Assembly: GCA_049322915.1 (NCBI GenBank)
Contig: JBMOPW010000045.1
Coordinates: forward strand, 104,206-168,205
DNA from: Candidatus Zhuqueibacterota bacterium
GTDB taxonomy: Bacteria > Zhuqueibacterota > Zhuqueibacteria > Thermofontimicrobiales > Thermofontimicrobiaceae
DNA: 64,000 nt
Direction: 5' to 3'
Shown here in pieces: positions 6,051 through 57,359 of the stretch (position 1 is its first letter; each line of letters starts with the position of its first letter). The position numbers and the translations under genes were made by a program. The notes under the pieces are model-generated. The model saw nothing but the letters and a program-made list of their open reading frames with translations. It did not search any database and had not been told where the DNA came from.

Positions 6051-6123
6051 AAAGCCCAATTTTATTATCTTCGGAACGGGATGTCTCTGGCTGACTATGG
6101 TTAAAATAATAAGATTGGGCTTT
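6051..6123. terminator. Probable bidirectional terminator between convergent genes
   Basis: 18-bp inverted repeat AAAGCCCAATTTTATTAT / ATAATAAGATTGGGCTTT (1 mismatch) followed by a T-tract. Confidence 0.55.
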
Positions 6124-6175
6124 TCTTTTTGTCCCCGGTACTTCTTCTCTCTCGGCCTCGTCCACACGGAGCCAG

Positions 6176-12800: not shown

Positions 12801-12995
12801 GTTTTGCTGAAAGGTATCTACAAGCTTTTTCAAAGCCGGGGGTAAAATAGATCGGTCCGTATTGCTTTCAATGCTCGTTACGTTCTTGATCTGAAAACTA
12901 TCCATTCTGCCCACTTTCAAATTTTGGGCAAAAATAAAATTTACAATCATGAAACTCAACATTGGTATAAAAAAATTCGTCACCCTTTGATGCAT
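9813..12995 (-). CDS. Secreted S8 (subtilase) serine peptidase with C-terminal modules and FlgD-Ig/T9SS-type domain
   Basis: Catalytic motifs VAIIDGG, HGTAVA, GTSLSSP; NYPNPFNP tail. Confidence 0.88.
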   Translation of the reverse strand: MHQRVTNFFIPMLSFMIVNFIFAQNLKVGRMDSFQIKNVTSIESNTDRSILPPALKKLVDTFQQNQDYRTYADRANIKVQGDKVVVTLMPKAGKTTEVFDGQDFGQVQAVVQARARHSMRVLVPIARLENFAEKLARIGMVKEQVKPVPDAIQSEGIALMNADTWQAEGYQGAGVKVAIIDGGFEKLTDAQSNGDIPATYTSQDFSGSGLQTDTEHGTAVAEAVYDIVPHAQFYLYKIDDLTDLENAKDACIANGVQIVNHSMSWFLQSYYDGTGPACDIVAEAIASGITWVNSSGNHAEDHYRAVFTPTVDNYHDFTGAGGKINAFGPEPGYVWLLPRFYYFQIWMNWDDYPTTSQDYDLYLYKWNSSSSTWEVAASSKTRQTGEQEPTESLYHVNLEVDGRYAIAVHKYSATVNVDFTIFAALGLSYHVVESSVTDPGSLAEVVTVGAIARDSYEAGPQEYFSGQGPTTNGTLKPDVSAPDSCNSFAFGYWQGTSLSSPYTAGVCALIQSRFPAYTSDDVKNYLYSSCTVDLGPAGRDNIYGWGKVVVPDFGGISDLRASVVSDDVLLEWTESDGIPTYNVYRGTTFDFVPDVAAGTNRIAANITDEDAGTAGIQWTDTGNGADVVGDVATNYFYRVTAVSAREYAPSSVAGEFDYQLVTTSGTDINRIVVIMNTADTRRSITTAENLAQAIPYCSDVYWWDASGQGTVGHVKGLPFNNFAVQPGYAYSVSVTKDTVWTVAGSYDNVSFNLVTTSGTDINRIGVPLAKAVLTTADQLGVNIPNCTDVYLWDAAGQGTLGHVVGLPFNNFAVRAGYPYSISITAPTTWPDYGEGELLASAPQVQGAGFRPDKSLAGGNIPHTVFGQIQHPDVEKLTLRAWISSRPGQVLTTGHVGVGIDKNYWYVGVSNFAENWNIGDSLIVTLTNEENGLYGSAVVVLSSDGSDDAGSIQLTGATRVAGVNLSALPKEFNLLQNYPNPFNPETKISYGLPQAAFVTVQIYDISGRLVRTLADENQGAGYHQVTWNGQDNFGRLVSSGVYFCKMKSGNFQKSMKLILSK
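9826..11258. repeat. Copy 1 of a 1433-bp near-identical duplication
   Basis: Matches 13366-14798 at constant offset 3540; about 40 mismatches counted by eye. Confidence 0.95.
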
Positions 12996-39436: not shown

Positions 39437-40804
39437 TTACAACTCCCCTTTACCTTGTTTGGACGGCGCGTCCGCAGATTTGCTGAGGATCGCCGCGCAT
39501 TTGTCAACTATTTCAATGGCCTTATCAACGATTTGTTCCGTGATATTTAATGAAGGCCGGAAACGGAGAGACCGTTCCCCGCACTTCAAAATGAACATCC
39601 CCAGCTCGAACGCCTGTCCGATGAATTTATTCCGAAGGCAATCGGTCGGCAAATCGAACGCGATGAACAGCCCTTTGCCGCGCACGTTGGAGATGAACCC
39701 GGCATATTTTTCCTGAAGAGTGAGCAGCTCATTCATGAAATAGGCGCCGACTTTCGCGGCATTATCCACGAGGCGCTCTTCCTCGATGATCTCCAGGTAG
39801 CGCTGGCTCCGAACCATGTCGACCAAATTGGCGCCCCAGGTTGAATTGATGCGGCTGGATTCCTGGAAGACATTATTTTCCACGTCGTCAATTCGTCGAC
39901 TGGCCAAAATACCGCAGACCTGTGCCTTTTTGCCAAATGCAATGATGTCCGGTTCAACATCGTGATGCTGATAGGCCCACATTTTCCCTGTGACGCCGAG
40001 CCCGGATTGCACCTCGTCGAATATCAAAAGGATATGATGTTCGTCGGCAACCGCCCGGAGCTGCTTCATGAATTCAGGTCTGAAATGATTGTCTCCGCCT
40101 TCGCCCTGAATCGGCTCAATGATGATGGCCGCGATGTCGTCCGGATGGTCCTGAATGGCCCGATGAATCTGGCTCAGGCTCATCTCTTCATCCTGAATCA
40201 CTTTCTTCAGATTTTCTTCAGTCACGGGAAACGTCAGTTTTGGATTGATCACTCGCGGCCAGTTAAATTTTGGGAAATATTTCGTCTTGGCCGGATCGGC
40301 GGTATTGGTCATGGATAGCGCATAGCCGCTGCGCCCGTGAAATGCCTGTTTGAAATGGATGACTTTGCTGCCCAGTTCTTCAATATGGCCCTTCTTAAAA
40401 TTGTGCCGCACTTTCCAGTCGAAGGCTGTCTTCAAGGCGTTTTCAACGGCGAGGGTGCCGCCGCTGATCAGGAACAGATGGGGCAGGCTTTCGGGAATGG
40501 CCACGCGGGAAAACGTCTCGACAAACTCGGCCATTTCCACGGTATAGAAATCTGAATTGGATGGCTTGTTCAATGAAACATAGGCCATTTTTTCTCTGAA
40601 CTCCGGGGTCAGCATTTTGGGGTGATTGAGACCTACAGGGAGGGTCGCGAAAAATGTGAAGAAATCAAGATATTCGCGGTTGGTCTTTGCGTCCACCAAA
40701 TAGCATCCGTGACTTTTCTCCAAATCGACAATAATATCAAAACCGTCAACCAGCATGTGTTTCGATAATATCGGAATGACATCGGCAGGTTTTACATTTT
40801 TCAT
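39437..40804 (-). CDS. lat: L-lysine 6-transaminase (class III aminotransferase)
   Basis: NKPSNSD, GTLAVENALKTAFDWK, EPIQGEGGD, DEVQSG, FGKKAQVCG, RINSTWG. Confidence 0.9.
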   Translation of the reverse strand: MKNVKPADVIPILSKHMLVDGFDIIVDLEKSHGCYLVDAKTNREYLDFFTFFATLPVGLNHPKMLTPEFREKMAYVSLNKPSNSDFYTVEMAEFVETFSRVAIPESLPHLFLISGGTLAVENALKTAFDWKVRHNFKKGHIEELGSKVIHFKQAFHGRSGYALSMTNTADPAKTKYFPKFNWPRVINPKLTFPVTEENLKKVIQDEEMSLSQIHRAIQDHPDDIAAIIIEPIQGEGGDNHFRPEFMKQLRAVADEHHILLIFDEVQSGLGVTGKMWAYQHHDVEPDIIAFGKKAQVCGILASRRIDDVENNVFQESSRINSTWGANLVDMVRSQRYLEIIEEERLVDNAAKVGAYFMNELLTLQEKYAGFISNVRGKGLFIAFDLPTDCLRNKFIGQAFELGMFILKCGERSLRFRPSLNITEQIVDKAIEIVDKCAAILSKSADAPSKQGKGEL

Positions 40805-40965
40805 TCATTCAACTCCTTAATTCGTCCTTGTCAATTGGAATACGTGCATCTTTTTCATAACGAACGGTCGTGTGATTTGAAATGAATATCCAGTCTTCTA
40901 TCGGGTGACGATTCATTCAACATCTTTCGTCGGCCGCAGGGCGTATCTGAAAAATAAAACTGAAT

Positions 40966-40994
40966 ATTATAACAAAAATATTTCTAAAAGTCAA
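40966..40994 (-). promoter_or_regulatory. Sigma-70-type promoter for the lat-rsmI operon
   Basis: TTGACT-N17-TATAAT with extended -10 TG on the minus strand. Confidence 0.65.
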
Positions 40995-41298
40995 GATAAA
41001 ACACGTCCGACCAATTTGAGCCTAACTACCGATTCAGGAAAAAGATACAGAGCGTTGCGGGAAATTTAAAAGGCAGAAAAAAAGCATGGGGTCAGCCGGA
41101 AATGCATCCGAAAAAATAGCGCGGATTGGGCATTACCCATCGCAGACATGCGTTGCGGATCATTTACAGCGTTGTTTCGAAGCGTATGAAACAGATGTCG
41201 GGGAGCATCCGGTGGCTTTCGCCGGGGGAGTTCGATTGAACAGGGCGAATCACGCCGGCAGCCGGAACGTCTGGTTGGTGAAACAGCGCGCCGGCGCA

Positions 41299-41787
41299 TC
41301 AGCGTTTGTATGCTTTGAATTGCAAATTCAGTTTTTCCCAGGTCTGGGTGAGGCCTTCGGACACAACTTTGGTGTGCCCGAAAATGGGCATGAAATTGGT
41401 ATCGCCGCGCCAGCGCGGGACGATATGAAAATGCAGATGGTCTTTCACCCCGGCGCCGGCAATTTCACCCAAATTCATGCCGATGTTGAAAGCGTGGGGC
41501 GACATGGTTTGAGTCAGCGCCTCTTTGCACGCGGCGAGGAGCTCCATCATTTCCACGCGTTCTCCATCCGTGAGACTCGAAATGTCCGATGTATGGCGAA
41601 AGGGAACGACCATCAGGTGACCGTTATTGTAGGGATAAAAATTCATGATGACAAAGCAGGAATCCCCGCGGAACAGGATGAGATTTTCCCTGTCGCGATC
41701 CTCGGATGGCTTGTCACAGAAGATACAGCCTTCGGGTTTTGGCTGTTCAATGTATTGAATCCGCCACGGCGCCCATAAAATTTCCAT
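41299..41787 (-). CDS. HIT family hydrolase (Ap4A phosphorylase-like)
   Basis: LWAPWR, CIFC, NFYPYNNGHLMV, HLHFHIVPRW. Confidence 0.92.
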   Translation of the reverse strand: MEILWAPWRIQYIEQPKPEGCIFCDKPSEDRDRENLILFRGDSCFVIMNFYPYNNGHLMVVPFRHTSDISSLTDGERVEMMELLAACKEALTQTMSPHAFNIGMNLGEIAGAGVKDHLHFHIVPRWRGDTNFMPIFGHTKVVSEGLTQTWEKLNLQFKAYKR

Positions 41788-41832
41788 AGGTTAGACCTCA
41801 GTCATGAATTTGCTTGAAGATTTGAATCGAAT

Positions 41833-41871
41833 AGATAAAGGGCAATCGGATGATCCGCTCGCCCTTTATCT
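41833..41871 (-). terminator. Hairpin after the EF-G-like gene
   Basis: AGATAAAGGGC...GCCCTTTATCT inverted repeat. Confidence 0.55.
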
Positions 41872-41910
41872 TGTTTTAAAATCATATCAACAGCGCCAGC
41901 AGACAGGCCG

Positions 41911-43995
41911 TTATTCGTTCTTCTCGGCTTCTGTTTGCGCGACAATTTTGTCGGCGACTTCTTTGGGCACTTCTTCGTAGTTGGAAAATTTCAGCTTGTG
42001 CCCGCCGCGTCCCTGAGTCAGCGAACGAAGCGTCGTGGAGTATTTGTATAGCTCGGACAACGGAATTTTAGCGTTGATAATCTGGAACGGGCCATTGGAG
42101 TCCATGCCCTGAATTTTGCCGCGACGGCTGGAGATATCGCCCATTACGTCGCCCATGAATTCCTCCGGAACCTGGATTTCCACGTCGTAGATTGGTTCCA
42201 GCAGCACCGGTTTCGCCTCGCGGAACAGCTTTTTGAAACACATGGAACCGGCAATTTTGAACGCCATATCCGAGGAGTCGACTGTGTGGAAGCTGCCAAA
42301 GTAAAGTGTCGTCCGTACATCGACCACCGGGTAGCCGGCAATGACGCCCTCTGTCTGGGCTTCTTTGACGCCTTTCTCAACGGCTGGGACGTATTTTCCC
42401 GGAATCACGCCGCCCACGATGGCGTCCACAAATTCATAGCCCTGACCCTTGTTGGGTTCGAGTCGCAAGGATACATCCCCGTACTGGCCGCGTCCGCCGG
42501 ACTGTTTTTTGTGCTTGTACTGGCCTTCGGCAGAGGAGCGGATTGTTTCGCGGTAGGGAATTTTGGGCTCGACCAGGTCCACTTCCACGCCATACTTTTC
42601 CCTCAATCGTTTCACGATGATGTTCAGGTGCAATTCGCCCTGGCCTGAAATGATGATCTGTTTCAACTCCGGATCGATGATCACTTTGAATGTCGCATCC
42701 TCGTCCTGAATGCTGTGCAGGCCGGTGGAGATTTTTTCGTCATCGCCTTTGGATTTGGGTACCACGGCGACGCGAATGACCGGTTCCGGAAAATCGATGC
42801 CGTCCAGAATAATGGGATTGCCTTTGTCGCAGAGCGTATCGGTTGTCGATGTATTTTTCAATTTTACGATCGCGCCAATATCACCACAGATGACCTGTCC
42901 GACTTCCTTTCTGTTTTTGCCATTCATCGAATAGATCTGGCCGATTTTTTCCGGGGAATCTTTGGTGGAGTTCAGCACTTCACTGCCTGTTTTCAATGTC
43001 CCGGAGTATACTTTCACAAAGGATAATTCGCCCACATGCGGTTCGGAAATCGTCTTGAACACAAGCGCCGAGAGCGGGGCATCGCTTTTCATCTCGCGCG
43101 TCAATTTATCCGTGGATCGCGGCTTCACTCCGAGTGCCTTAGGCCGGTCCGATGGCGCCGGGCAGGCAGTGACGATCAGGTCTAACAACGGCCGAATGCC
43201 AATATTTTCTGTGGCAACGCCGCATACGATAGGCGATAAATTGCCGGAAACAATGCTCTTGCGCAGCCCTTTTTTCAGTTGATCCTCGGACAACTCGCCT
43301 GTGTCGCAGAAGATGTTGAGCAGTTCTTCGTCGTTCTCGGACACCGATTCCATGAGTTCATTCCGCAACTCCGCGGCGCGATCTGCCACGTCCGCAGGAA
43401 TCTCCTCTTCCGTGAATTTGCCGGACTTATTCTTTTCAAATCGGAGCAATTTCATTCTCAGAATATCCACAATGCTGTCGAATTTGTCGTTACCCTCATT
43501 CACCGGGAACTGCAAGGCAGCGACGCTGTTGCCGAAGCGTTTTTTGGCATAGTCATAAATTTTGGAAAAATCAGCGTGCTCTTTATCCAGCCGATTGATG
43601 AAGAAAATCCGAGGGATATTATTTTTCCCTGCCAGATCAACCATTGCCTCTGTCCCCACCTCGAACCCTGAGACCGCATTGACGAGAACCAGCGTCGAAT
43701 CGCATACGCGCAGGGCGCCAATGACTTCACCAACAAAATCGGAATAGCCCGGTGTGTCCAGGATATTAATCTTGCAATTTTTCCAATCCAGATTGAGCAG
43801 GGATGTGCTGATGGAAATCTTGCGGTCGATTTCATCCTGATGGTAATCAGAGATGGTCGTGCCATCATCCACGGTTCCGATACGGTTCGTTTCCCCTGCG
43901 GTGAAGGCAATTGCCTCTGACAGAGATGTTTTGCCGACGCCGCCATGAGAAATCAATCCCACATTCCTAATCTGATCCACTGTGTATTCTTTCAC
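41911..43995 (-). CDS. fusA: Elongation factor G paralogue (EF-G2 type)
   Basis: SHGGVGKT, DTPGYSDF, NRLD, GQGELHL, KKQSGGRGQYG, VDSSDMAF; outside the str operon. Confidence 0.9.
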   Translation of the reverse strand: MKEYTVDQIRNVGLISHGGVGKTSLSEAIAFTAGETNRIGTVDDGTTISDYHQDEIDRKISISTSLLNLDWKNCKINILDTPGYSDFVGEVIGALRVCDSTLVLVNAVSGFEVGTEAMVDLAGKNNIPRIFFINRLDKEHADFSKIYDYAKKRFGNSVAALQFPVNEGNDKFDSIVDILRMKLLRFEKNKSGKFTEEEIPADVADRAAELRNELMESVSENDEELLNIFCDTGELSEDQLKKGLRKSIVSGNLSPIVCGVATENIGIRPLLDLIVTACPAPSDRPKALGVKPRSTDKLTREMKSDAPLSALVFKTISEPHVGELSFVKVYSGTLKTGSEVLNSTKDSPEKIGQIYSMNGKNRKEVGQVICGDIGAIVKLKNTSTTDTLCDKGNPIILDGIDFPEPVIRVAVVPKSKGDDEKISTGLHSIQDEDATFKVIIDPELKQIIISGQGELHLNIIVKRLREKYGVEVDLVEPKIPYRETIRSSAEGQYKHKKQSGGRGQYGDVSLRLEPNKGQGYEFVDAIVGGVIPGKYVPAVEKGVKEAQTEGVIAGYPVVDVRTTLYFGSFHTVDSSDMAFKIAGSMCFKKLFREAKPVLLEPIYDVEIQVPEEFMGDVMGDISSRRGKIQGMDSNGPFQIINAKIPLSELYKYSTTLRSLTQGRGGHKLKFSNYEEVPKEVADKIVAQTEAEKNE

Positions 43996-44171
43996 AAAAT
44001 GCCTCCTTAAATTACGGTGGAACTATCTTATAATTGCTGCTCAGTTACCTTGCAAACAAATGGCATTTGTTCGATTTGTCTCCGTGTCGGACATTCCTGA
44101 AAATACCTCGGAAATAAGTGCCTCATGGTTGACATGACCATTCAAATGTGAACCAAGCAGGTGTGTTTATT

Positions 44172-45680
44172 TCAACTATTGGGATTTTGTTTTAGCTTTC
44201 TCCTCAAAATCTGACCTATCTTATTTCGCGGTAGTTCATTGTAAAATTTTATGACCTGTGGACATTTATAAACCGGCATGTGATTTTTGCAAAACTCGAT
44301 GATCTCGTGGACAGTGACTGTTTCGTTCTTCTTCAGCACAAGGCAGGCGGCAACATCTTCCTTATGGTCCGGATGAGGGATGGAAATCACTGCCGCGTCT
44401 TTGATTTTTGGGTGATTCAGCAACACGTCTTCAATTTCTTTGGTGTAAATTAAAAAGCCGCTTTTGACGATGACGTCGGACTTCTTTTCGCCGATGTAAA
44501 TATAGCCCAGCTCATCCTTCTTGCCCAGATCGCCGGTGTACAACCACCCATTTTTCAATCGTTTTGACATGAGATCGGTGTCGTTCCAATATCCCTTCAG
44601 CACGTCCTGGCTCAGAATCGCCACTTCGCCAATGACATTCGGTTCCACTTCATCGCCGCGGGCGTTGTGAATTTGAATCTCCAGTCCGGCGAGCGGAACG
44701 CCCACGGAATCGTTACGGACGTCCAGGGACGGATGATTTGAACAGACGATGCCGCCGCTTTCAGTGAGACCGTAGCAATTCAATAGCGGCACGTTGAACC
44801 GATTTTTGAAGTCCGATGCTAACTGGTCCGGGACGGGAGTCCACGACGAGAGGCAGAATTTTAGCGATTGGCCTTTTAAAATTTGTGGATCAATTTTTAA
44901 TAACGAGGCGTAAACGTCGGCGCTTGCCACAAGCACGGTCGTGCCGGTCTGGTCAATTTCACGGGCAATTTTTTCATAATCGAGTTTTGCATGCAGCACA
45001 ACCGAACTCCCCAGCGAGAGAGCGCTATTCAAAATAATGTTCTGGCATGAAATCAGAAACAGAGGAAGGATTGCGCCGAACACATCGTCGCCGGTGAATC
45101 GGAAAAAATCGGCCGTGCGGTTTGCGCTGGCGGATAAATTCCGATAGCTCAGCTCCACGCCGACCGGCAATTCGGACATTCCGGACGTGTATTGAATCAC
45201 CGCCACATCATCGGCATTCATCCCGCTGAAAACAAAGTCCGGGGCCGACGAGGCGATCAATTCGATGAGATTGAATTCTGCGCTATTGGATGTTTTCCCC
45301 AGGCAAATCAAAATCGGTTTCATTTCACCCCAGTCCCGGACCTGGTCAATGGCCTGAGTAAAGCCTTCCCAACAGATAATGGCGCGGGGATTGAGGTTTT
45401 TTAAAACGTGATTGAGGTCGTCTTTTTCCAGGGTGTAATTAATGGGACTGATGATGGCTCCGATTTTGAGAGCGGCGTAATAGCTGAATATGAAATGTGG
45501 TAAGTTGGGCATCAGAAGGGCGATGCGATCGCCGCGTTTAAGCCCGATTCCTGAAAGGCCGTTGGCTAATTTATTGGTGATTTCGTCGACCTGGGCGTAC
45601 GTGATGGTATGTTCATTGAAAATGATGGCTGTTTTATTGGGTAATTCCTGAGCGATTTTTTTATATTTCTCAATTAACAT
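44172..45680 (-). CDS. ANL-superfamily AMP-binding protein (acyl-CoA ligase-like) with degenerate catalytic motifs
   Basis: YTSG, YGLTE, GWLYTGDLG present; P-loop and A10 lysines substituted. Confidence 0.8.
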   Translation of the reverse strand: MLIEKYKKIAQELPNKTAIIFNEHTITYAQVDEITNKLANGLSGIGLKRGDRIALLMPNLPHFIFSYYAALKIGAIISPINYTLEKDDLNHVLKNLNPRAIICWEGFTQAIDQVRDWGEMKPILICLGKTSNSAEFNLIELIASSAPDFVFSGMNADDVAVIQYTSGMSELPVGVELSYRNLSASANRTADFFRFTGDDVFGAILPLFLISCQNIILNSALSLGSSVVLHAKLDYEKIAREIDQTGTTVLVASADVYASLLKIDPQILKGQSLKFCLSSWTPVPDQLASDFKNRFNVPLLNCYGLTESGGIVCSNHPSLDVRNDSVGVPLAGLEIQIHNARGDEVEPNVIGEVAILSQDVLKGYWNDTDLMSKRLKNGWLYTGDLGKKDELGYIYIGEKKSDVIVKSGFLIYTKEIEDVLLNHPKIKDAAVISIPHPDHKEDVAACLVLKKNETVTVHEIIEFCKNHMPVYKCPQVIKFYNELPRNKIGQILRRKLKQNPNS

Positions 45681-45921
45681 GCTTCGTTTTAAACCCCTCC
45701 AAAATTTTTATCCGTTATAGTATAAAAAAAAAATGTCAAAATCAAGTTTTTTTTAAAACAAGGGCGCCCCCCAAATTCAATGTGAATTTTTCAAGTCCCT
45801 GTATTTCAAAGGAGCGAAATGGCAGCCGGCCGATTTTGCAGGCATCCACCTTCCGAATCAGGAATCCCGTTGCCGGTGACGCGCACTGAATTTCGGGCGT
45901 GACAGAATCGCAATTTTTACC

Positions 45922-45950
45922 TTGACTTTATTGAATTGCTCGTTTATATT
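45922..45950 (+). promoter_or_regulatory. Sigma-70-type promoter for the CHAT-STAND-TPR gene
   Basis: TTGACT-N17-TATATT, 79 bp upstream of ATG 46029 (GGGAGG RBS). Confidence 0.55.
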
Positions 45951-46028
45951 GTGACCAATTCTCATTTCACTTTGCCCGTAACCCACCTTAAAATCTGTCA
46001 AAGCTCAATCCAGGGAGGCGATCCAGCC

Positions 46029-49000
46029 ATGTCGCTATTTCTTGATATCCTCATGGAACTTGTACCTGAAATGCTGTTCCGCGCGATCAAAGACTACATC
46101 GACATCCGCAAAGGGGAGTTGAAAGATTCTGCCTTTGAAAAATTTTACCGAACCTTAGTCGTTTCGTTCATCGACACGCAAAAGGGATTGGACCAGGGGC
46201 AGGCAAAGAAATTTTTCGCCAGCGATGCCGCGCTCGATGGCGTGCTGGCGTATCTCTATCGCTTCACCGATCCTGATGCGGCGATTCGTGACAAATGCCA
46301 GCAGGCACTGTGTAGTCTGGCAGATCGATATAAAATCTCAGGCGACGCGAAATTTCCGACTGAAAAATTGGTGCAACGCTTTTTAGTTGATCTCGAAACC
46401 GAGCTGCGCCACGATGTCAATAAATCGCTGCTGCCCTTTTTCACTGATCTTCGGGATGACCATGCCAGAATCGTGCAGAAGCTGGATAGCCTGACCGAAC
46501 AGATCGAAGCGGATCGCCAGGCGCGTGAGCAACGCGCCACCCAGATCGATGCCAGCGGCGAAAAAGTGACGGTTCATGGGCAATTGATTTACGATTCCAG
46601 GGAAAAGCCTGAGCCACAACTACCCCTGCCCGTCATTCATTGCACGCTTGAAGCCATCGATAAAGACAATGACCGCTATCGCTCCGTTATTACCAACGAT
46701 AAAGGCAAGGAACTCCACAAACACAATTTCACGCTCAAACGCGACGATGTCTTTCTGCTCAATGCCAATCACTGGCTGGAACATGATGGTTTGCAGGATT
46801 ATCGCAGCCAGATCAAAATTGATTCGAACAGGACGTTTACCCAGCGCGTGGGGAATCATTATTTTGAACTGATTATGGGCGGAAATGGGACGCTGAAGAA
46901 ACATCTCAACACCAATGGTGAATTGGAACGTGGCTTTCAATTTATGTTGGAACTCGATCCCGAAGCTGAATTGCTGTGGCAGGCGCCGTGGGAATTTCTG
47001 CACGATAGCGAGGAGTTTTTGGGACTGTCGGGCAAAGTGCACCTGGTGCGGACGCCTCTCGGCGCGGGCGCGCTGGCGGTCAAGCCCATTCCCCAGCCGC
47101 TGAGAATTCTGGTCGTGATCTCCAATCCTGCGGATAAGGGCGAGTTCGATGGTGAGCGGGCGCTGTCATCGATTCAGGAAGCCGTGGATTACGCGCGGCG
47201 CAATGGCTGGGTCGAGCTGGAATATCTGGAGGATGCCACATTTCTCAATTTTCAGCAGCGACTGGCAGCGTTTCAGCCGCATGTCGTGCATTACATCGGT
47301 CATGGCGGCAGGAATCCCGACGATAAAAAATCGATCAAATCCCCTTATTCAGGCATGCCTGGCGAAACCTACCTCGCGTTTGAAAATGAGAACGGCGATC
47401 TCGATCCCCTCTATGGCAAGCATCTGCAACAATTGTTGGCAAACGCATCATCGGTGCAACTGCTGGTGTTATCGGGCTGCATGACGGGACAGACGGCTGC
47501 CACCGATGCGCTGGCTGGCGTGGGAACTGCCTTGCTCAGGGAACAACTTCCCGCGCTGGTGGTGATGCAGTATTCGGTGCTGGTGGATACCGCCATCCAA
47601 TTTGCCAAAATATTTTACGAGCGAATCAGTAGCGGCAAGCGGCTGAGCCAGGCGCTGACCGAAGTGCGCCAGGTTTTGGCAAAGGGACGTGAACATCGGG
47701 CCGACTGGGGCATTCCTGCGCTGTATCTTCGTTCGGCAGAACTGCAGCTCATCGATCCCAGGGCGAAAAAGCGGGAACCCGAAATCACGGTCGAGCGCAC
47801 CGCCATCGGCGATCTGCCCGTAGTGGCAGGATTTGTGGGAAGAGTGAAAGAACTGCGGCGCTTGCGGGAGACCGTGAAACATCCCCAGCAGCCTGTGATC
47901 TACATCTGGGGACTGGGCGGCATCGGCAAGACCAGCCTCACGGCCAAGCTCATCGAAAAGCTGGAACAGGAACACGCTATTGACGCAAGGCGGGTGATTC
48001 GCTGCAACGAAATCGAGCCGACCTTTGCTGCAATAGCTCAAAAGGTTGGCGATTTCATTAAATTGCAAGGGATGGCAGGACATGCCGAGGCAGGCATCAT
48101 GCTGCAGGATAGCCGCTACGATATCGAGACCAGGGTTTCCCTGCTCAACCAGGTCATCAAAGATCGGCGCTGCCTGTTCGTGTTCGATAATTTCGAATCC
48201 CTGTTCAGCGAAAAAATCCCGCAGGTGGGACGGCTGAACGATCCCGAGCTGGAAACGTTTTTCCAGACGCTGTTCAGCCATAACTGGCGCAGCACCTTTT
48301 TGTTCACCTGCCGCTACCAGTGGAATCTGTTGCTGGAAGAGCCAGGCATGCACCGCTACGCCTGCGGCTTGCCCCGCGCCAATGCGCTGGTGCTGCAGTT
48401 GCAGGGACTCTCGCCTGCGCAGACCCGCATGTTGATGAAGAACCTGCCCGCGCTGGGCAAACTGACGTTCATTGAACAGACCCAGGTGCTGCCGCTGGTG
48501 TTGGGACATCCCCATACCGTGCATCTTTTTGACGCCTATCTTGGTCAATATGGATTAAAATCAGTGTTGCAGGATGATGAAATTACCCGCCGTAGAGACG
48601 TTACATGTAACGTCTCTACACCAACCGAAATTATCCAAAATTTGGGCGCCTATTTCCTCGATGGTCTCTGGGCAAAATTGAACGAACAGGAACGGGATAT
48701 CCTGGGCCTGTTGTCCGTGTTCCGCACCAGCCTGGCCGAGGACGGCTTGCGGCAACTGGCGCCCGATTTAGCCGCGCTGACGACGCTGCGCAACTACTCC
48801 CTGGTGCAACGCATGACCAGCGATACAGAGACCCGCCCTGACTACGGCGTGCACCCTGTGGTGCGCGGCTATGTGGATCGCAAATTCAGCGCGGAGCAGA
48901 TGAAAGCATATCACATGGCTGCGGTGGATTTTTATGTGGCGCAACAGGCAGCCAGATTTCCAAAATCAGATAAGATTGATCAATGGACGCCCGCACTATT

Positions 49001-49994
49001 AGCCCAGATAGCCGAACTCGCCGCTCAACAGGGCAATACCCCGCTGGCGCTGAGCCTGACCGAGGGCTTGCTGGAAATGCACCATCATCTGTTTGCGGCT
49101 GGGGAGTATGAACAGGCTGGCGCTTTGGTAACAGATTTTTATGATTTTCTTGCAATGATTGGTCGCCGTGAAGTCGCTAAAAATCTGCTGCGCCAGAGCA
49201 TTGCTTCACGAGAAGGATTCAACAAATACGTCGCCATGGGCAACCTGGCGACGCTGCTGAAAAACGAAGGCAAATGGCAGGAGGCGCTGGCGACGCATCA
49301 GGAATGTATTGACTATTTCGATAAAGAAGATGCAAAACAGCAAATGGCTCAGGTTTTAAGCCAGCAGGCGCAAATCTACCAGGAACGCGGCGAGTATGAG
49401 CAGGCGCTGGAGCTGGAGCGGAAGGCGATTGAAATTAAGGAAGAAATAAAAGATGAAACTGTCGTTATTCAATACTACCGCATTGCGCAACTGCTGGATA
49501 GAATGGAACGCTACGACGAGGCGCTGACCGCAGGCGAAACCGCGCTGGCAAAAGTCCGCCAGATCAGCAATGCCCAATTGGAAGCCGCCTGCCTGCACCA
49601 GCTCGGCATGACGCTGAACAAGCTCAACCGACCGCAGCAGGCGTTTGAGCGATTTCAGGAGAGTTTACAAATCACAGAAAGACTCGGCGACCGCGCAGGG
49701 CAGGCGGATACGCTGGGAGAGATGGGAAAATTATTATTGAATACTGGACAATTTGATGCGGCTATTCATCTATTTCAAAAGGCAATTGAGATTTATTTCG
49801 AGCAAAACAATCCTGTCAAAGCTGCCATTGTTTTGGAAGCAATTGGATTCACTTTCGAACAACAAGGTCATTTTCAGGAAGCCCTGGAAAAGTATCAGGA
49901 GGCACTGCGGTTGTTTAAGCAATATAGCCATGCAGGAGATGTGGCTGGTACAGAAAGAAATATTGCACGGGTTAAAGCGAAACTGGGGCGGTAG
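46029..49994 (+). CDS. NLR-like protein: helical N-terminus, CHAT caspase-like protease, STAND (NB-ARC-like) NTPase, TPRs
   Basis: PWEFL, HYIGHG, LSGC, WGIPALY (CHAT); GLGGIGKT, LFVFDNFE, FTCR, GHP, VHPVVR (STAND); C-terminal TPRs. Confidence 0.88.
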   Translation: MSLFLDILMELVPEMLFRAIKDYIDIRKGELKDSAFEKFYRTLVVSFIDTQKGLDQGQAKKFFASDAALDGVLAYLYRFTDPDAAIRDKCQQALCSLADRYKISGDAKFPTEKLVQRFLVDLETELRHDVNKSLLPFFTDLRDDHARIVQKLDSLTEQIEADRQAREQRATQIDASGEKVTVHGQLIYDSREKPEPQLPLPVIHCTLEAIDKDNDRYRSVITNDKGKELHKHNFTLKRDDVFLLNANHWLEHDGLQDYRSQIKIDSNRTFTQRVGNHYFELIMGGNGTLKKHLNTNGELERGFQFMLELDPEAELLWQAPWEFLHDSEEFLGLSGKVHLVRTPLGAGALAVKPIPQPLRILVVISNPADKGEFDGERALSSIQEAVDYARRNGWVELEYLEDATFLNFQQRLAAFQPHVVHYIGHGGRNPDDKKSIKSPYSGMPGETYLAFENENGDLDPLYGKHLQQLLANASSVQLLVLSGCMTGQTAATDALAGVGTALLREQLPALVVMQYSVLVDTAIQFAKIFYERISSGKRLSQALTEVRQVLAKGREHRADWGIPALYLRSAELQLIDPRAKKREPEITVERTAIGDLPVVAGFVGRVKELRRLRETVKHPQQPVIYIWGLGGIGKTSLTAKLIEKLEQEHAIDARRVIRCNEIEPTFAAIAQKVGDFIKLQGMAGHAEAGIMLQDSRYDIETRVSLLNQVIKDRRCLFVFDNFESLFSEKIPQVGRLNDPELETFFQTLFSHNWRSTFLFTCRYQWNLLLEEPGMHRYACGLPRANALVLQLQGLSPAQTRMLMKNLPALGKLTFIEQTQVLPLVLGHPHTVHLFDAYLGQYGLKSVLQDDEITRRRDVTCNVSTPTEIIQNLGAYFLDGLWAKLNEQERDILGLLSVFRTSLAEDGLRQLAPDLAALTTLRNYSLVQRMTSDTETRPDYGVHPVVRGYVDRKFSAEQMKAYHMAAVDFYVAQQAARFPKSDKIDQWTPALLAQIAELAAQQGNTPLALSLTEGLLEMHHHLFAAGEYEQAGALVTDFYDFLAMIGRREVAKNLLRQSIASREGFNKYVAMGNLATLLKNEGKWQEALATHQECIDYFDKEDAKQQMAQVLSQQAQIYQERGEYEQALELERKAIEIKEEIKDETVVIQYYRIAQLLDRMERYDEALTAGETALAKVRQISNAQLEAACLHQLGMTLNKLNRPQQAFERFQESLQITERLGDRAGQADTLGEMGKLLLNTGQFDAAIHLFQKAIEIYFEQNNPVKAAIVLEAIGFTFEQQGHFQEALEKYQEALRLFKQYSHAGDVAGTERNIARVKAKLGR
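48592..48619. repeat. Perfect 28-bp GTAG-type palindrome (REP-like) inside the CDS
   Basis: GTAGAGACGTTACA|TGTAACGTCTCTAC is its own reverse complement. Confidence 0.85.
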
Positions 49995-50017: not shown

Positions 50018-50037
50018 GTTTGTTGCAGGAGTCATTT

Positions 50038-50880
50038 TCGTCCCAAAGGGACGACTGATAATAGCCCATCCCGATTGATCGGGATGGGATCAAAAAGGAT
50101 AAAGGTATTTTCAAAGTCCCGTCAGGGACGAATGAATAACAATGCAACAAAACATCCCACGTTGCGGAATTATGTTTCGACAAAATTCATTCGTCCCTAC
50201 GGGACTTGGGCTTGGGCGTGGTCTTTCATCTCTTTTCCCAAGAATAAATTCTTGGGCTATTGTCAAATGTCCCTGTTGGACAAAATGAAAACAACCCATT
50301 GATGTGTCAACGGGATTTGTTCGTCCCAAAGGGACGGAATGAAAATAGCCCATCCCGATTGATCGGGATGGGATCAAAAAGGATAAAGGTATTTTCAAAG
50401 TCCCGCCAGGGACGAATGAATAACAATGCAACAAAACATCCCACGTTGCGGAATTATGTTTCGCCAAAATTCATTCGTCCCTACGGGACTTGGGCTTGGT
50501 CTTTCATCTCTTTTCCCAAGAATGAATTCTTGGGCTATTGTCAATTGTCCCTGCGGGACAAAATGAAAACAACCCATTGATGTGTCAACGGGATTTGTTC
50601 GTCCCGAAGGGACGGAATGAAAATAGCCCATCCCGATTGATCGGGATGGGATCAAAAAGGATAAAGGTATTTTCAAAGTCCCGCCAGGGACGAATGAAAT
50701 AATGATATGATGAAAATGATTGATTCGTGATGATGCCGCCAAAATTCATTCGTCCCTACGGGACTTGGGCGTGGTCTTTCATCTCTTTTCCCAAGAATAA
50801 ATTCTTGGGCTATGGTCAATCGTCCCTTTGGGATGGAATGAAAATAGCCCATCCCGATTGATCGGGATGGGATCGAAAAG
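50038..50880. repeat. Array of alternately inverted ~100-bp multi-hairpin modules (REPIN/BIME-like), ~280-bp period
   Basis: A modules 50038-50136, 50321-50420, 50599-50698 and partial 50820-50880; inverted B modules 50186-50285, 50470-50563, 50745-50835. Confidence 0.92.
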
Positions 50881-50937: not shown

Positions 50938-51390
50938 ATGGCACATTCCTATGTGAGCATATTAATCCATTACATCTTCAGCACCAAACATCGGGAAAAA
51001 AATATCTCTCCTGAAATTCAAGATCGCGTTTGGGCATACATGGGCGGGATTGCACGGGAAAACAATATGAAAGCATTATCCATCGGCGGCGTCGAAGAAC
51101 ACGCACATGTTTTGTTATCGTTACCGGCGACAATTTCTATTTCCAAAGGCGTGCAACTCATCAAAGGCGGTTCGTCCAAATGGATTCATGATACGTTTCC
51201 GACACTTAATGAATTTGTTTGGCAAGTTGGATATGGCGCTTTCAGCGTGAGTATTTCTCATGTTGATGAAACGATCAACTATATTGAAAATCAAAGAGAG
51301 CATCATCGACACAAAACTTTTCAGGAAGAATATTTGGCGTTTTTGAAGAAGCACGCTTTTGAATATGATGAAAACTATATCTGGGGATAA
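50938..51390 (+). mobile_element. tnpA: Stand-alone IS200/IS605-family TnpA / REP-associated Y1 HUH nuclease
   Basis: HYIFSTKHR, HUH motif HAH, KGGSSKW, WQVGYGAFSVS, catalytic YIENQ; no tnpB downstream. Confidence 0.9.
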
Positions 51391-51606: not shown

Positions 51607-54600
51607 CTATCGCATTAAAATCAGTTTCCGACTCTGGACGTAAGTCCGTGGGAGCAGCGCTGCACTGTTCTCCCGGCGTGATAAAACCGGCGAGTGATCC
51701 GTTGCCTCCAGCCGATAAAGATATATCCCACTGGAAATTCCCCGGGCATCCCAGTTACAACGATGAATTCCTGCTGTCAGGCGTTCAGTTATCAGGGATG
51801 TCACCTCTTCGCCCATCATGTTGTAAATTGTAAGCGTGACAAAACACGGTCTCGGAAGAGCAAATTCGATGGTCGTGCTCGGGTTGAACGGATTGGGATA
51901 GTTTTGATTCAGCGAAAACGACTCAGGAATGGGATTCATCGCCGGCTGTTCCACCTCAGTCAGGACAGCTTTGGAGAAAGGCGAGGTGCTACCCTCAGCG
52001 TTAATTGCAATGGCCGTCACATTGGAAAAAGGCCCATGAATGGAACCGTTCCAGATGAAATTGCCGGCCGGATCGGACATGGTTTCGCCCTGGAAAATTT
52101 CACCCTCGTCCTCAGAGTCCGTGTAGATTTCGATCATGGCGTCAGCGATGGCTGTGCCTGAGACGGAAGAACCAGTGACCGACGTGATGGTCGGCGCGCT
52201 GATCACATTGGCCCCGCCTGAATCGTAGAGTATGCCGGATTGTTGATTGTGAGCGATGCTGTTATGGCTGATCCGGTTGCGGAGCGGCTCTGCGCCATAG
52301 ATACGCACCCCGGCGCCGCGATTGAACCAGATGAAATTGTTCCGGATGCAGTTATCGTACGATTCATCCGCGATGAACACGCCGTCGAATTCATTGCCCG
52401 TGAGTGGATCGATGAATTCCGGCGCCATGCCGATCCAGTTATTCTGGATGCTACTGCGGCAGGACTCTAAAATGTAAATGCCATATCTATTTCCACCGAT
52501 CCGGTTATCGAACACCGCCACGCTGTCGCATTGATTTTGAATACAGATGCCGCCATAATTACCGTTGGGAATGGGCGCATCCCCCAACCGATTGAGTCCG
52601 ACGATGTTGCCCAGGATGTTCACGTGATGCGAAGAATCCGAGACAAATATCCCGCCGTTGGTATTCCCGGAAATGACATTGCGGAACGTATCCATCGGCG
52701 CGATGACCACAAACTGGCTGTGATTCCCAATCCACACGCCATAGCCATTGGGCGCCGGGCTGAAACCATTGAAATCGGCCCCGATGTAGCAGCCGCGCAG
52801 GTGGCCGCCATCGACATTGTCCATGCTGACGCCGGTGCTGTAGAAATTATTGATGGTCAATCCATGAATGAAAACCATCGAACCTGTCACATTCAGGCCG
52901 GAGACGTATTGCCCTGCGTTGCTGCCGCTTATAACTATCTCCGGGCCGTGAGGATTGCAGTCCCTGCCAATAAATGCTGCCTGTGAAAAACCATTCAGAA
53001 ACAAGTCATTATCTGAGATGGTTGGTAATTGACTGAGCGGAGAGATGATCCAGACACCGACATCCGCATCGTGGCCGGGGACGCCCTCGGGAATGGCGAA
53101 TAAAATTGTGTCAGGGCCGATAGAGGAGTTGGCGCTGTTGATTGCGTCGCGCAATGATCCGGGGCCGGCGTCCATGCAATTGGTAACGAGCAGACTGCCT
53201 GTCGTGGGACCGCTTAAAGGATACATGATGGCGAATGTTGAGAGATGATCGGTTTCGCCCCGAATGACATTGACATCGGTATACAGATGGGTTGTGATTT
53301 CAGCCCATTGCCCGCTGGGTTCATCGAATCGCATCAGTTTCAGGGTTGTTTCGTGATCGCCCAGACCGGCGTCGCTGTAAGTGATCTCCATGCTAATCAC
53401 ACCGGAATAAGTGGCCGTTGTGCTGATGAGATAATAACCGGGATTGCCTTCCGGGATCACCACGTGATATGCCGGGGGAATTGGGCCAATGGGTTCAATG
53501 GCGGCGTCGGTATTGCCCGGATTGATCACCTGAGCGAACATCAATTGAATCGCGCTGGTGACATCAACGATGACATTGACGCCGGCCGGCGTGTTGGTCG
53601 GCGATGTGGAAGAAATTGTGAACACAGCGTCGCTGATATCGAAGGGCTGCCCATCCGTGGCGTCCGAGACTTTGACGCAGCAATTGCTGGACGGGGTATT
53701 CGGCACAGTCCATTGGTACGACGGCGAACCGGAGTAGGAACCGGCAATGGTCGAATATGTGGCCCCGCCATTGGTCGAGTACTCAATCTTCACCGCTCCA
53801 CTGAACAGATGGGTATTCCAGACAATGTAACGCGGAGAACCCACATTCCAATTTTCACCGCCGTTGGGCACATCGAGTTTGATGTACGGATTGGAGGTAA
53901 TTTCAAATGAGGCGTTGCTGACGTCGGAAATCACACTCGCCTGCAAGACGGAAAGGCGCACGAGGCAATTGGTGGACGGCTCATCCGGCAATGTCCAGGT
54001 ATAAGAGCCGGCCGTGCCGTGATTGGTCTGATAGGTAACGAAGGAATAATTCGCTCCGCCATCGGTCGAGTACTCGATTTTCACATCGTAATTATCGATC
54101 CCCTGTCCTGTCCAGGTGATGGCCTGAGGCGTGTCCGCTTCCCATTGTTCGCCGCCGTTCGGGTTGGTGACAGTGATACTCGATGTCGATGTTCCGCCCT
54201 GTCCGACAACTTCATCGATACCGACCTGTCCATCGATCAGGCCGGTCATGGCGCCCATGATTTGAATCGTGATCTCTTTCATCGTGTAGTTGGTGGGAAA
54301 AATGGAACTCGACGACCAGTCGAATGTCAGCGTGTTCCACACAGCGTTGGAGTTAAACCAGGAGCTGTATGTCAGTGGTTGATTTAAAAGCTGGTCATTG
54401 TAAAACGTGCGGTCCTTTGCCAGATCATTGTCATACACCGTAACGATGAGGTTGGCGTACAGGGTGGAGCTGACCGTCATATTTTCGGTGAGCCTGACCG
54501 ATATGCTGGTTACGCTCTGCCAGTCGGTTTCGCCCGATAAATCCGGCGAACTGAACTTCATGATCCAGTAGGTTCCGGAGGAACCAGTAATGCCGTGTCC

Positions 54601-54843
54601 GCCGCTGGTGAAAAAGAGCAATGAACCATTGCCCGACCCGGTTGTGGGATAGTTGACCAGACTGGTCCATGACAATGTGAAATTCGATGAGTACGGACCA
54701 TTACCGCTTTCATCGTATGCCCCCTGCATGGTCCAGCCCTGTTTGGTGCCATCGTTGAAGTCAAATTCTTGCGCACCTGACTGGACTGCCAGCCCCATTC
54801 CCATTGCCAAAATGAGAATGAGTTTTAAATGATTCATTTTCAT
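51607..54843 (-). CDS. Large secreted protein with Ig-like repeats, right-handed beta-helix and T9SS-type C-terminal domain
   Basis: Signal peptide; two PNGGExW repeats; VTNCMDAGPGSLRDAI; NVISGN/GN.IG beta-helix turns; NYPNPFNP. Confidence 0.82.
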   Translation of the reverse strand: MKMNHLKLILILAMGMGLAVQSGAQEFDFNDGTKQGWTMQGAYDESGNGPYSSNFTLSWTSLVNYPTTGSGNGSLLFFTSGGHGITGSSGTYWIMKFSSPDLSGETDWQSVTSISVRLTENMTVSSTLYANLIVTVYDNDLAKDRTFYNDQLLNQPLTYSSWFNSNAVWNTLTFDWSSSSIFPTNYTMKEITIQIMGAMTGLIDGQVGIDEVVGQGGTSTSSITVTNPNGGEQWEADTPQAITWTGQGIDNYDVKIEYSTDGGANYSFVTYQTNHGTAGSYTWTLPDEPSTNCLVRLSVLQASVISDVSNASFEITSNPYIKLDVPNGGENWNVGSPRYIVWNTHLFSGAVKIEYSTNGGATYSTIAGSYSGSPSYQWTVPNTPSSNCCVKVSDATDGQPFDISDAVFTISSTSPTNTPAGVNVIVDVTSAIQLMFAQVINPGNTDAAIEPIGPIPPAYHVVIPEGNPGYYLISTTATYSGVISMEITYSDAGLGDHETTLKLMRFDEPSGQWAEITTHLYTDVNVIRGETDHLSTFAIMYPLSGPTTGSLLVTNCMDAGPGSLRDAINSANSSIGPDTILFAIPEGVPGHDADVGVWIISPLSQLPTISDNDLFLNGFSQAAFIGRDCNPHGPEIVISGSNAGQYVSGLNVTGSMVFIHGLTINNFYSTGVSMDNVDGGHLRGCYIGADFNGFSPAPNGYGVWIGNHSQFVVIAPMDTFRNVISGNTNGGIFVSDSSHHVNILGNIVGLNRLGDAPIPNGNYGGICIQNQCDSVAVFDNRIGGNRYGIYILESCRSSIQNNWIGMAPEFIDPLTGNEFDGVFIADESYDNCIRNNFIWFNRGAGVRIYGAEPLRNRISHNSIAHNQQSGILYDSGGANVISAPTITSVTGSSVSGTAIADAMIEIYTDSEDEGEIFQGETMSDPAGNFIWNGSIHGPFSNVTAIAINAEGSTSPFSKAVLTEVEQPAMNPIPESFSLNQNYPNPFNPSTTIEFALPRPCFVTLTIYNMMGEEVTSLITERLTAGIHRCNWDARGISSGIYLYRLEATDHSPVLSRRENSAALLPRTYVQSRKLILMR

Positions 54844-55361
54844 AGCATCACCTCGTATTGTTGAACATGATTTCGATTGATTTGTCAATCATCGGTTTTT
54901 CTACTATTCCATTTTTACTAATTTCTGAAAAATCAACCCGCTCCAATTCCATGGATTGAAGCATTGCTCATCCATTCATTGTCGAAAGGTGTGTCTGAGG
55001 TCCCGGCGATGTGCGCCGATCGAATCCTTTCCCAACGCCCGGATCAGGAGGACGCGCCGTCGTTGCTTTTTTTGTGCTGCGCCGTTGTTTGGGACAGGGA
55101 TTCACAGCACACGCGAATTTCCCCTGATGGCAGAAGGATATGATGAAGCATTTTCATGTTGATCCATTCCTTGAGAATCGTTTCATTCAGCCCGGTGAGA
55201 CGCGCCGCGCATGGCATGGTGATCATGTTGCTGCACTGGCAGATAAATTGAAATTTACTTGTTCAGGTCAGGGCTCGCCGAAATGTCTGGCTGAGACGAT
55301 TGCCGATTTTGGCCAGCATCAGGATAATTCTTGCATAATATAAAAAAAATGATTATGATAG

Positions 55362-55406: not shown

Positions 55407-57359
55407 ATGTTCGAAGAGGAGAGATTGATTTTTCACTTTGCAGATTTCATGTTGGATGTTGCAGATCATCGGCTGACGCAGGGTGATAAGGAAATTTATC
55501 TCCGGCCAAAATCATTCGAGACCCTCGTTTACCTCATCGCCCGCCACGGGCATCTGGTCGATAAAAATGAACTGCTCGATGAAATTTGGTCGGGCACTAT
55601 TGTGACTGAAGCGACGCTATCTCACTGCATCGAAGAGATTCGGCGCGCCCTGGCCGACGACGCCTACCATCCCCGCTTCCTCAAAACCGTCCCAAAAATC
55701 GGCTATAAATTCATCGGAAAAGTCGATAACCTGCCGACTGAGACGGATGAGGAAATAACCGAGCATTATTCAGAAGTCAGAATTCGGCTCACCGAAGAAA
55801 AACTTACTGAAGATTCCGAACCGTCTGCCAGCGAAACCACAACGCCGGAACATCACAACGCCTTGCCCATCAGCCTGCCCCGATATGCATTCTTACCGAA
55901 AATAGTGGGAGTCGTCTCGATCATCATCCTCTTATTTCTGGTCATTCGCCATGTATTCATGGAATCGGATCACAACATCCATTCATTGGCGGTGCTGCCG
56001 TTTGTCAATATCAATGCCGACCCGGAGCAGGATTATTTTGTTGATGGAATGACGGAGGAATTGATCACCGAACTGGCGAACATCAGCGCTCTCCGCGTGA
56101 TCTCCCGGACTTCGATCATGCGTTTCAAAGGGGCGGAAGAATCGCTGCCCGAAATTGCTGCCCGGCTGGGCGTTGACGCGGTTGTTGAAGGATCAGTGCT
56201 CCATAGCGGCAACAAAGTCCGGGTGAATGCGCAGCTCATTCACGCCCGAACGGATCAACATCTCTGGGCGGAACGGTACGAGTGCGATTTGAGCAATGTC
56301 ATTGGATTACAGGGGGAGATTGCCAGGTCCATTGCGCAGACTATCAAAACCCGGCTGACGCCGGAGGATGTTGACCGGCTAAAAAAGAAGCAATCAATTT
56401 CACCTGAAGCGCATCGTGACTTTCTCAAGGGGCGCTATTTCTGGAACAAAAGGACCGAGGATGGATTTCTGAAAGCGATCGTGTATTTCAACCAGGCGAT
56501 CGAATTGAATCCTGTGTATGCTCAGGCTTACGCCGGCCTGGCGAACTGCTACAATCTGCTCTATGATTACGATTTGATCCGGCCCGGGGATGTGGCGCAA
56601 AAAGCCAGAGCCGCCGCGATAAAAGCGATCGAGATTGATACGATGTTTTCCGAAGGGTATGCATCATTGGCGTTCGTCTCATCCCGATATGATTGGGACT
56701 GGCAGGGCGCCGAAGCGAATTTCAAACGCGCCATTCAATTGAACGAAAACGATGTCCTCGCTCATCACTGGTATGCCCTGCACTTAGCCATGCTCAAGCG
56801 ATTCGATGAGGCATTCGCTGAAATCACAAAGGCGCAGGAATTGGATCCGCTCTCACTCATCGTTTCAACTAATGTTGGCTGGATTTTGTATTTTGCCGGT
56901 CGATACGACGAAGCAGAGCAGCAGATCAACAAAGTGTTGGACATGGATCCTAATTTCCTGTCCGCTCGTGTGAAACTTGGCTGGATATACGAGCAAACCG
57001 GAGAGTATTCGCTCGCACAGGCTGAGTATCAAAAGGCGTTACAGCTTACGCCTGATGACACCAATGTGCTGAGCCTGTTGGGCAATAGCTATGCGCTCTC
57101 CGGCAATCGAAGCGAAGCTCAAAAAGTAGTTGACGAATTGATCCGCCGATCGCACCAACGCTATATTTCTTCCTATTGGATTGCTATTATGTACACCTGT
57201 CTGGGAGAAAAAGACGAGGCGTTCGCCTGGCTCAATCAGGCATGCAGAGAAAGGAGTAGCGGCCTTATTTGGCTGAATGCCGATCCCAAATTGCTTCTGC
57301 TTCGGAATGACCCGCGGTTTTCTCAATTGATGCTCCGGATTGGATTTGCAGGAAAATGA
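55407..57359 (+). CDS. CadC/OmpR-type winged-helix regulator with TM segment, TolB-like domain and TPRs
   Basis: LRPKSFETL..ELLDEIW..IRRAL..TVPKIGYKF; TM helix; SLAVLPF..YFVDGMTEELI..VISRTS; TPRs. Confidence 0.88.
   Translation: MFEEERLIFHFADFMLDVADHRLTQGDKEIYLRPKSFETLVYLIARHGHLVDKNELLDEIWSGTIVTEATLSHCIEEIRRALADDAYHPRFLKTVPKIGYKFIGKVDNLPTETDEEITEHYSEVRIRLTEEKLTEDSEPSASETTTPEHHNALPISLPRYAFLPKIVGVVSIIILLFLVIRHVFMESDHNIHSLAVLPFVNINADPEQDYFVDGMTEELITELANISALRVISRTSIMRFKGAEESLPEIAARLGVDAVVEGSVLHSGNKVRVNAQLIHARTDQHLWAERYECDLSNVIGLQGEIARSIAQTIKTRLTPEDVDRLKKKQSISPEAHRDFLKGRYFWNKRTEDGFLKAIVYFNQAIELNPVYAQAYAGLANCYNLLYDYDLIRPGDVAQKARAAAIKAIEIDTMFSEGYASLAFVSSRYDWDWQGAEANFKRAIQLNENDVLAHHWYALHLAMLKRFDEAFAEITKAQELDPLSLIVSTNVGWILYFAGRYDEAEQQINKVLDMDPNFLSARVKLGWIYEQTGEYSLAQAEYQKALQLTPDDTNVLSLLGNSYALSGNRSEAQKVVDELIRRSHQRYISSYWIAIMYTCLGEKDEAFAWLNQACRERSSGLIWLNADPKLLLLRNDPRFSQLMLRIGFAGK

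Follow-up and report, generated by a model that had tools for sequence, protein, structure and literature searches.

A rare helical head on a CHAT-STAND-TPR protein of Candidatus Zhuqueibacterota, a candidate single-chain NLR-like switch

Avs and bNACHT proteins are single-gene systems built on a tripartite logic, with an N-terminal output domain, a central STAND nucleoside triphosphatase (NTPase) and a C-terminal repeat sensor. The effectors of bacterial NACHT proteins include caspase peptidases, and proteases are listed among bNACHT effectors (bioRxiv 10.1101/2022.07.19.500537). Proteins with CHAT, STAND and TPR domains are noted as a class in PMC13581612, and CHAT-bearing proteins resembling nucleotide-binding leucine-rich repeat receptors (NLRs) adjoin fungal gasdermins (PMC8851545). 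We analysed a 64,000-nucleotide stretch of a Candidatus Zhuqueibacterota genome (GenBank assembly GCA_049322915.1, contig JBMOPW010000045.1, forward-strand positions 104,206 to 168,205), here called the window, in which one gene encodes a 1321-amino acid protein with the same tripartite logic. Its domain order is shared with the published CHAT-STAND-TPR class, to which the present subfamily adds a helical head of ~170 amino acids in front of CHAT. Compared by sequence, the core of the protein is of a known kind and the head, named N-dom here (residues 1 to ~155), is a new and very rare domain family.

The solved CHAT proteases with which the protein was compared were SAVED-CHAT (8tl0), Csx29/TPR-CHAT of type III-E CRISPR (7y9x), separase (5fc2) and DdvA (8rot). 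These are switched on by cyclic nucleotides, by a CRISPR effector, by the release of securin or by signals at the membrane, whereas the presumed activator here would be the fused STAND NTPase. For the head, the nearest parallels are the plant CC, fungal HeLo and bacterial NNH heads of NLRs, which like N-dom occupy the very N-terminal end of STAND proteins, are all-helical and without catalytic residues, and have been swapped between backbones. A further principle is that of the effector-associated domains (EADs), several copies of which occur per genome, one on an NTPase and one on a separate effector (PMC8195603).

A rare head domain and its backbones

An exhaustive phmmer search with residues 1-210 returned 13 proteins at E ≤ 0.001 among 1,835,955,588 cluster representatives, and a profile of 12 heads matched 10 proteins among those longer than 275 amino acids and 10 among the shorter ones. 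N-dom is confined to the N-termini of STAND proteins, on three backbones of which two lack CHAT: head-CHAT-STAND-TPR, as in the window; head-STAND-helical repeats (P0024, with a truncated version in the 348-amino acid P0099 of KSB1/Deferribacteres assemblies); and head-NB-ARC-TPR (P0090 and P0092, the cluster of the latter including a Lysobacterales assembly). P0024, a protein of 940 amino acids, is 50% identical to the query over the first 158 residues only, and a P-loop STAND module and helical repeats follow directly, without an intervening CHAT domain. The short matches were fragment-like, with a stop inside the domain or a drift out of frame, and the profile searches of long and short proteins turned up neither a stand-alone nor an effector-only N-dom protein. 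Two 74-amino acid head pieces, together with the N-terminally shortened orthologues P0009 and P0008, suggest split genes.

Because N-dom is the sole N-terminal domain in two CHAT-less backbones, it is best read as a portable, non-enzymatic and self-sufficient N-terminal output module of STAND proteins, and it probably acts by itself when clustered. An earlier note on this DNA had proposed that the N-terminal domain may be an output or effector-type module, and the occurrence of the same domain at the head of CHAT-less STAND proteins lends that proposal indirect support. Two genes on the same (minus) strand precede the intact P0024 gene (locus L019, G142:C136), one for a 208-amino acid protein with an adenylate/guanylate cyclase domain (3487-4113) and one for a 598-amino acid HEAT-repeat protein (4187-5983); together with P0024 they may form a small conflict-type cluster, seen in this one genome.

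Helices cover residues 3-169 in both structure models, eight of them short (3-139) and one long (141-169). The ~190 amino acids of unrecognised helical sequence first described in front of CHAT are indeed helical and unrecognised, and their length is revised to ~170, the residues that follow being part of the N-terminal lobe of CHAT. This helical region is matched by no Pfam, PADLOC or NCBIfam model; for residues 1-310 the best Pfam match was never better than E 0.07, and EAD, bDLD and NNH models were absent from the Pfam matches at E ≤ 10. Foldseek found nothing in the PDB for the head at E ≤ 0.001 (best 0.84), and no Death-fold chain was among the structural matches listed for it, an absence that does not exclude the fold. 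The nearest named clusters in a protein-atlas feature search were NNH2 (0.87) and NNH5 (0.84), both below 0.9 and to be taken as leads only. In the 12 aligned heads only three positions (Y40, F47, A59) never vary and four more (G29, D33, V44, F63) hardly do, a pattern unlike that of an enzyme, and N-dom is probably not one. A membrane-helix head was also considered; residues 1-18 show moderate hydrophobicity (mean 0.39, moment 0.28) and there is no transmembrane segment, from which nothing is concluded.

The core has a much wider circle of relatives. A word-indexed search with the whole protein returned 78 proteins at E ≤ 0.001, including ten (P0003-P0012) that are 58-76% identical and, where named, come from Calditrichaceae/Calditrichia assemblies, and eleven (P0013-P0023) with 25-28% identity over 72-84% of the query that carry Pfam CHAT, NACHT/NB-ARC-type and TPR domains and whose sources include Methanoperedens and Zixiibacteriota assemblies. 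P0013, the relative that was aligned pairwise, has no head and matches from its own residue 76 and query residue 267. Since the relatives at 25-28% identity lack the head and P0013 aligns only from residue 267, the core appears to be older than the head: on this comparison the CHAT-STAND-TPR core is an old, widespread and known architecture, and the head is an addition to it. We know of no protein of the P0013-P0023 type that has been tested experimentally.

The CHAT domain with an intact His/Cys dyad, as recognised in the earlier note, is borne out. Pfam CHAT (PF12770) matches residues 306-560 at 100.6 bits against a cut-off of 24, and His425 in HYIGHG (residues 421-426) and Cys484 in LSGC (residues 481-484) are invariant in all eight aligned orthologues and kept in P0013 as well. 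A predicted model of residues 1-600, made from a 30-sequence alignment (mean predicted local distance difference test score, pLDDT, 76.1; predicted template modelling score, pTM, 0.68), gave 59 Foldseek matches at E ≤ 0.001 that identify a caspase-like fold. In this model H425 comes after strand 419-423 and C484 ends strand 478-484 (DSSP), and the His motif aligns to SAVED-CHAT 8tl0. Structural alignments to Csx29, separase and DdvA cover model residues 198/199-572/579, and because of the Foldseek matches to CHAT structures the beta-rich stretch after residue 170 is taken as part of CHAT. By these comparisons the protein carries a CHAT caspase-like fold with an intact dyad, and its peptidase activity is predicted. 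Two loops are of low confidence, 243-265 (pLDDT below 50) and 485-491; a conserved cleavage loop at 243-265 was considered and dropped, its conservation being no higher than average (7 of 23 columns invariant versus 467 of 1321 across the protein). The genome of the window is rich in caspase-like proteases, with six further open frames matching Pfam CHAT (C14:93461-96670, C35:145201-146118, C14:54065-54631, C19:56606-57541, C4:154755-155573 and C14:51391-51615), one of the six being a 2829-amino acid frame with two matches.

The STAND NTPase and C-terminal TPRs read earlier from the same sequence were recovered by the family models. On the whole protein the P-loop models ATPase_2 and AAA_16 (residues 602-730) lie slightly below the Pfam cut-offs, and the excised segment passes them (AAA_16, 34.5 versus 32.6; nSTAND1, 32.7 versus 27.1). 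The Walker A residues are invariant in eight of eight aligned orthologues, P943 and V945 of VHPVVRGY are invariant, and the STAND protein PH0952 (6mfv) matches residues 875-985. TPR_12 matches residues ~1050-1320 with 137.4 bits (E 1.9e-40, Pfam), other TPR models match too, and NCBIfam gave only partial TPR matches far under its cut-offs. By sequence, the solved structures closest to the protein are those of TPR proteins, of the STAND sensor PH0952 (6mfv) and of the SAVED-CHAT protease 8tl0. Among six full-length orthologues, mean pairwise identity is 0.76 in the CHAT core and nucleotide-binding domain, 0.63 in the TPRs, 0.58 in the head and 0.56 in the long helix.

Distribution, context and decay

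The N-dom profile was positive in 8 of the 167 genomes of the phylum, a count that takes in the window's own genome, the unpublished G158 and one marginal match (E 1e-3), and in 7 of the 105 high-quality ones. Each of the eight positive genomes holds one N-dom gene, the two matches in G166 being pieces of one broken gene, and the genome of the window (6.25 Mb, 96% complete) has a single copy at E ≤ 1. Because N-dom is present once per genome, its occurrence does not follow the paired-adaptor pattern of EADs. The gene is accessory. It was not found in the same-genus genome G124 (94% complete), whose DNA aligns with window 39498-45760 (72-74% identity) only as far as a point just before the CHAT-STAND gene, so that synteny breaks at window ~45760, between the acyl-CoA synthetase and CHAT-STAND genes. 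Past the break (G124:C9:52147 onward, L017), G124 carries genes for a solute symporter, the response regulator and histidine kinase of a two-component system, and an ion channel.

A scan of genome contigs yielded two confirmed loci out of 30 pattern matches. The orthologue at L002, from a Calditrichaceae assembly, is 58% identical over residues 1-1319 and lies among genes unrelated to those of the window (photolyase, DUF2911, aminotransferase and others). No gene family was common to the flanks of the window, the intact L002 copy, the frameshifted CHAT-type copy of G166 and the CHAT-less copies of G142 and G140, and the proposal that the gene stands alone agrees with the lack of a conserved neighbour in the two orthologous contexts. 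In tblastn comparisons the CHAT-type copy of G166 is spread over three frames, lacks residues 46-81 and has no match past residue 1150, and the CHAT-less copy of G140 is spread over two, while P0024 in G142 is intact. The broken G166 copy (L020, G166:C29, 2517-5788; 61% identity) has an HNH endonuclease gene just downstream (6011-6439). The accessory distribution and the gene decay fit a conflict gene, without proving an immune role.

A candidate switch and its rivals

The architecture of the protein, its intact motifs, and its accessory, decaying and context-free distribution lead us to read it as an NLR-like switch for conflict or cell death, encoded by one gene, contained in one chain and caspase-like in its output, a reading to which we assign a probability of about 55%. 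The C-terminal TPR region would bind the trigger, a foreign or stress-derived protein, and this binding would free the NTPase module for ATP binding and oligomerisation. Oligomerisation would then gather the N-terminal halves and turn on the CHAT protease through His425/Cys484, which would cleave cellular targets, possibly including its own N-terminal part, with growth arrest or cell death as the outcome. We infer the trigger, the oligomerisation, the protease activation, the target and the conflict or defence role alike. The head could cooperate with CHAT as a second output, as a protease cap, or as a piece that is cleaved in cis and released.

In its core the protein is another example of a widespread prokaryotic caspase-plus-NLR class. 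The head is compact and very rare, and evolution has moved it among three STAND backbones, the mark of a putative self-sufficient output module. If it kills or arrests cells when clustered, bacterial NLR-like systems would gain a new type of effector, and the CHAT-bearing form would offer a natural case in which to study how a protease and a second output cooperate in one receptor; if the head is inert, the locus would be one more accessory NLR-like gene.

Several observations weigh against a conflict or cell-death role. PADLOC-DB 2.0 matched the protein with generic TPR models and a weak SAVED_CHAT model (5.9e-8) only and with no Avs/AVAST model, and on seven relatives it gave only generic TPR models and some weak ones, among them SAVED_CHAT and BovA; the label "Avs-type" given in the earlier note gains no support from this result. 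Nor does the locus lie in a defence island, which that note had named as a context to look for: Pfam recognised no defence gene among the 39 neighbouring open reading frames (ORFs) of the window, and the neighbours are housekeeping genes. In both respects the protein is unlike Avs, and its nearest solved STAND protein by sequence is the TPR sensor PH0952 (6mfv). The His of the MHD-like motif (His942) is replaced in one of the eight orthologues, and ATP hydrolysis may be weak because Asn follows the Walker B Asp (DNFE). Comparison of orthologues shows no hypervariability in the TPR region, where identity (0.63) lies between those of the head and the CHAT core, and near-identical DNA repeat cassettes were looked for in it and not found. 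The frameshifts occur in metagenome-assembled genomes and are possibly assembly errors. With six other CHAT frames in the genome, CHAT proteins here may also serve ordinary regulation.

A non-immune proteolytic signalling switch, acting in development, stress or at the cell envelope like the CHAT proteins HetF or DdvA, is a serious rival, one that seems to us unlikely. The housekeeping neighbourhood and the six other CHAT frames would be consistent with such a regulatory role; however, the same-genus genome and most genomes of the phylum lack the gene, copies are decaying and the context is unconserved, all of which would be unusual for a core regulator.

N-dom could also be a pro-domain or cap that keeps CHAT inactive and is cut off, or serves as the substrate, upon STAND oligomerisation, as in the in-cis substrate idea of the earlier note. 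Self-processing is common among caspase-fold proteases, N-dom lies directly N-terminal to CHAT and is joined to it by the long, least conserved helix, and in the model the low-confidence loops 243-265 and 485-491 could be processing sites. Yet conservation in the first of these loops does not exceed that of the whole protein, and N-dom also heads STAND proteins without a protease, on which it must have a CHAT-independent function. We regard the cap as improbable.

In another reading N-dom would be a new non-enzymatic cell-death executioner, a counterpart of the plant CC, fungal HeLo and MLKL four-helix-bundle heads. It would be fired by STAND oligomerisation in the CHAT-less relatives, and the protease would free or unmask it in cis in the protein of the window. 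We think this quite doubtful; if true, sensor, switch, caspase-like protease and executioner would be united in one polypeptide, a pyroptosis-like cascade in a single chain.

That N-dom works as an EAD-type or Death-like homotypic adaptor, recruiting a second protein with the same domain, is very unlikely: a small helical non-catalytic domain N-terminal on STAND NTPases and on a caspase-like effector is the pattern described in PMC8195603, and the sub-threshold atlas neighbours NNH2 and NNH5 would agree with it as leads, but the single copy per genome, the lack of stand-alone or effector-only N-dom proteins in the profile searches and the missing Pfam EAD, bDLD and NNH matches all count against it.

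The gene and its surroundings

The product is encoded intact in a single ORF (45936-49994, plus strand), and the ATG at 46029 is the first Met in five full-length orthologues of the alignment as well. The motifs HYIGHG, LSGC, GLGGIGKT, LFVFDNFE and VHPVVR all lie where the earlier note had placed them, and the features are collected in Table 1.

Table 1. Position and basis of the features of the gene in the window
Feature	Window position	Strand	Basis
Promoter-like -35/-10 pair (TTGACT, 17-nt spacer, TATATT)	45922..45950	+	10/12 consensus matches
Shine-Dalgarno-like GGGAGG	46014..46019	+	Read off the sequence
Coding sequence, 1321-amino acid N-dom/CHAT/STAND/TPR protein	46029..49994 (stop codon included)	+	ORF reading; start matches orthologues
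N-dom, residues 1-140	46029..46448	+	Bundle of ~8 helices; matches no known family
Long connecting helix, residues 141-169	46449..46535	+	DSSP of two models; least conserved segment among orthologues
CHAT N-terminal lobe, residues 171-352	46539..47084	+	Structural alignments; includes low-confidence loop 243-265
CHAT catalytic caspase-like lobe, residues 353-580	47085..47768	+	His425 codon 47301-47303; Cys484 codon 47478-47480
STAND NTPase module, residues 601-960	47829..48908	+	AAA_16, ATPase_2, nSTAND1; 6mfv match
Walker A GLGGIGKT, residues 628-635	47910-47933	+	Motif reading
Walker B LFVFDNFE, residues 716-723	48174-48197	+	Motif reading
MHD-like VHPVVR, residues 941-946	48849-48866	+	Motif reading
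TPR sensor region, residues ~1050-1321	49176..49991	+	TPR models, PDB TPR proteins; helical arm from ~961 precedes

The upstream neighbour is a divergent acyl-CoA synthetase gene (44172-45680), and the promoter-like pair lies in the 348-nt spacer, 79 nt ahead of the ATG. Across the scanned stretch, sites of this kind are no more frequent than in shuffles (3 observed versus 5.6 expected). The gene had been credited with its own promoter; the promoter-like site is present but is of a kind not seen above shuffles, and the claim rests mainly on gene order, an own promoter being presumably needed because the gene upstream points the other way. On the downstream side come a palindrome array and then an IS200-like transposase gene, and with these neighbours the earlier statement that no substrate gene is adjacent holds. 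No gasdermin gene is adjacent in the window or at L002, and a genome-wide Pfam gasdermin search of the window's own genome gave no match, with control genomes equally silent.

The array consists of 2.9 copies of a 278-bp unit (91% matches; window 50037-50852, plus strand) directly 3' of the CHAT-STAND gene and is dense in short palindromes of high GC content, for example CCCATCCCGATTGATCGGGATGGG. Next comes the gene for the 150-amino acid IS200-like Y1 transposase (window 50938-51390, plus strand), and the two together look like an array of the repetitive extragenic palindrome (REP) or bacterial interspersed mosaic element (BIME) type with its REP-associated transposase. Matches to parts of the array (window ~50470-50705) are also present in the DNA of the same-genus genome G124.

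Elsewhere in the window (9813-12995, 13353-17474 and 51607-54888, minus) are genes for very large predicted secreted proteins with C-terminal type IX secretion sorting domains, in that order an S8 peptidase, an FG-GAP/ASPIC protein and a beta-helix protein. The S8 peptidase and FG-GAP/ASPIC genes have near-identical C-terminal coding ends, judged from shadow ORFs of equal length. A further gene (window 55407-57359, plus strand) encodes a 650-amino acid protein with an N-terminal OmpR/CadC-type DNA-binding domain and C-terminal TPRs, a CadC/HilA-like layout, and is followed by a 367-amino acid ORF without a family match.

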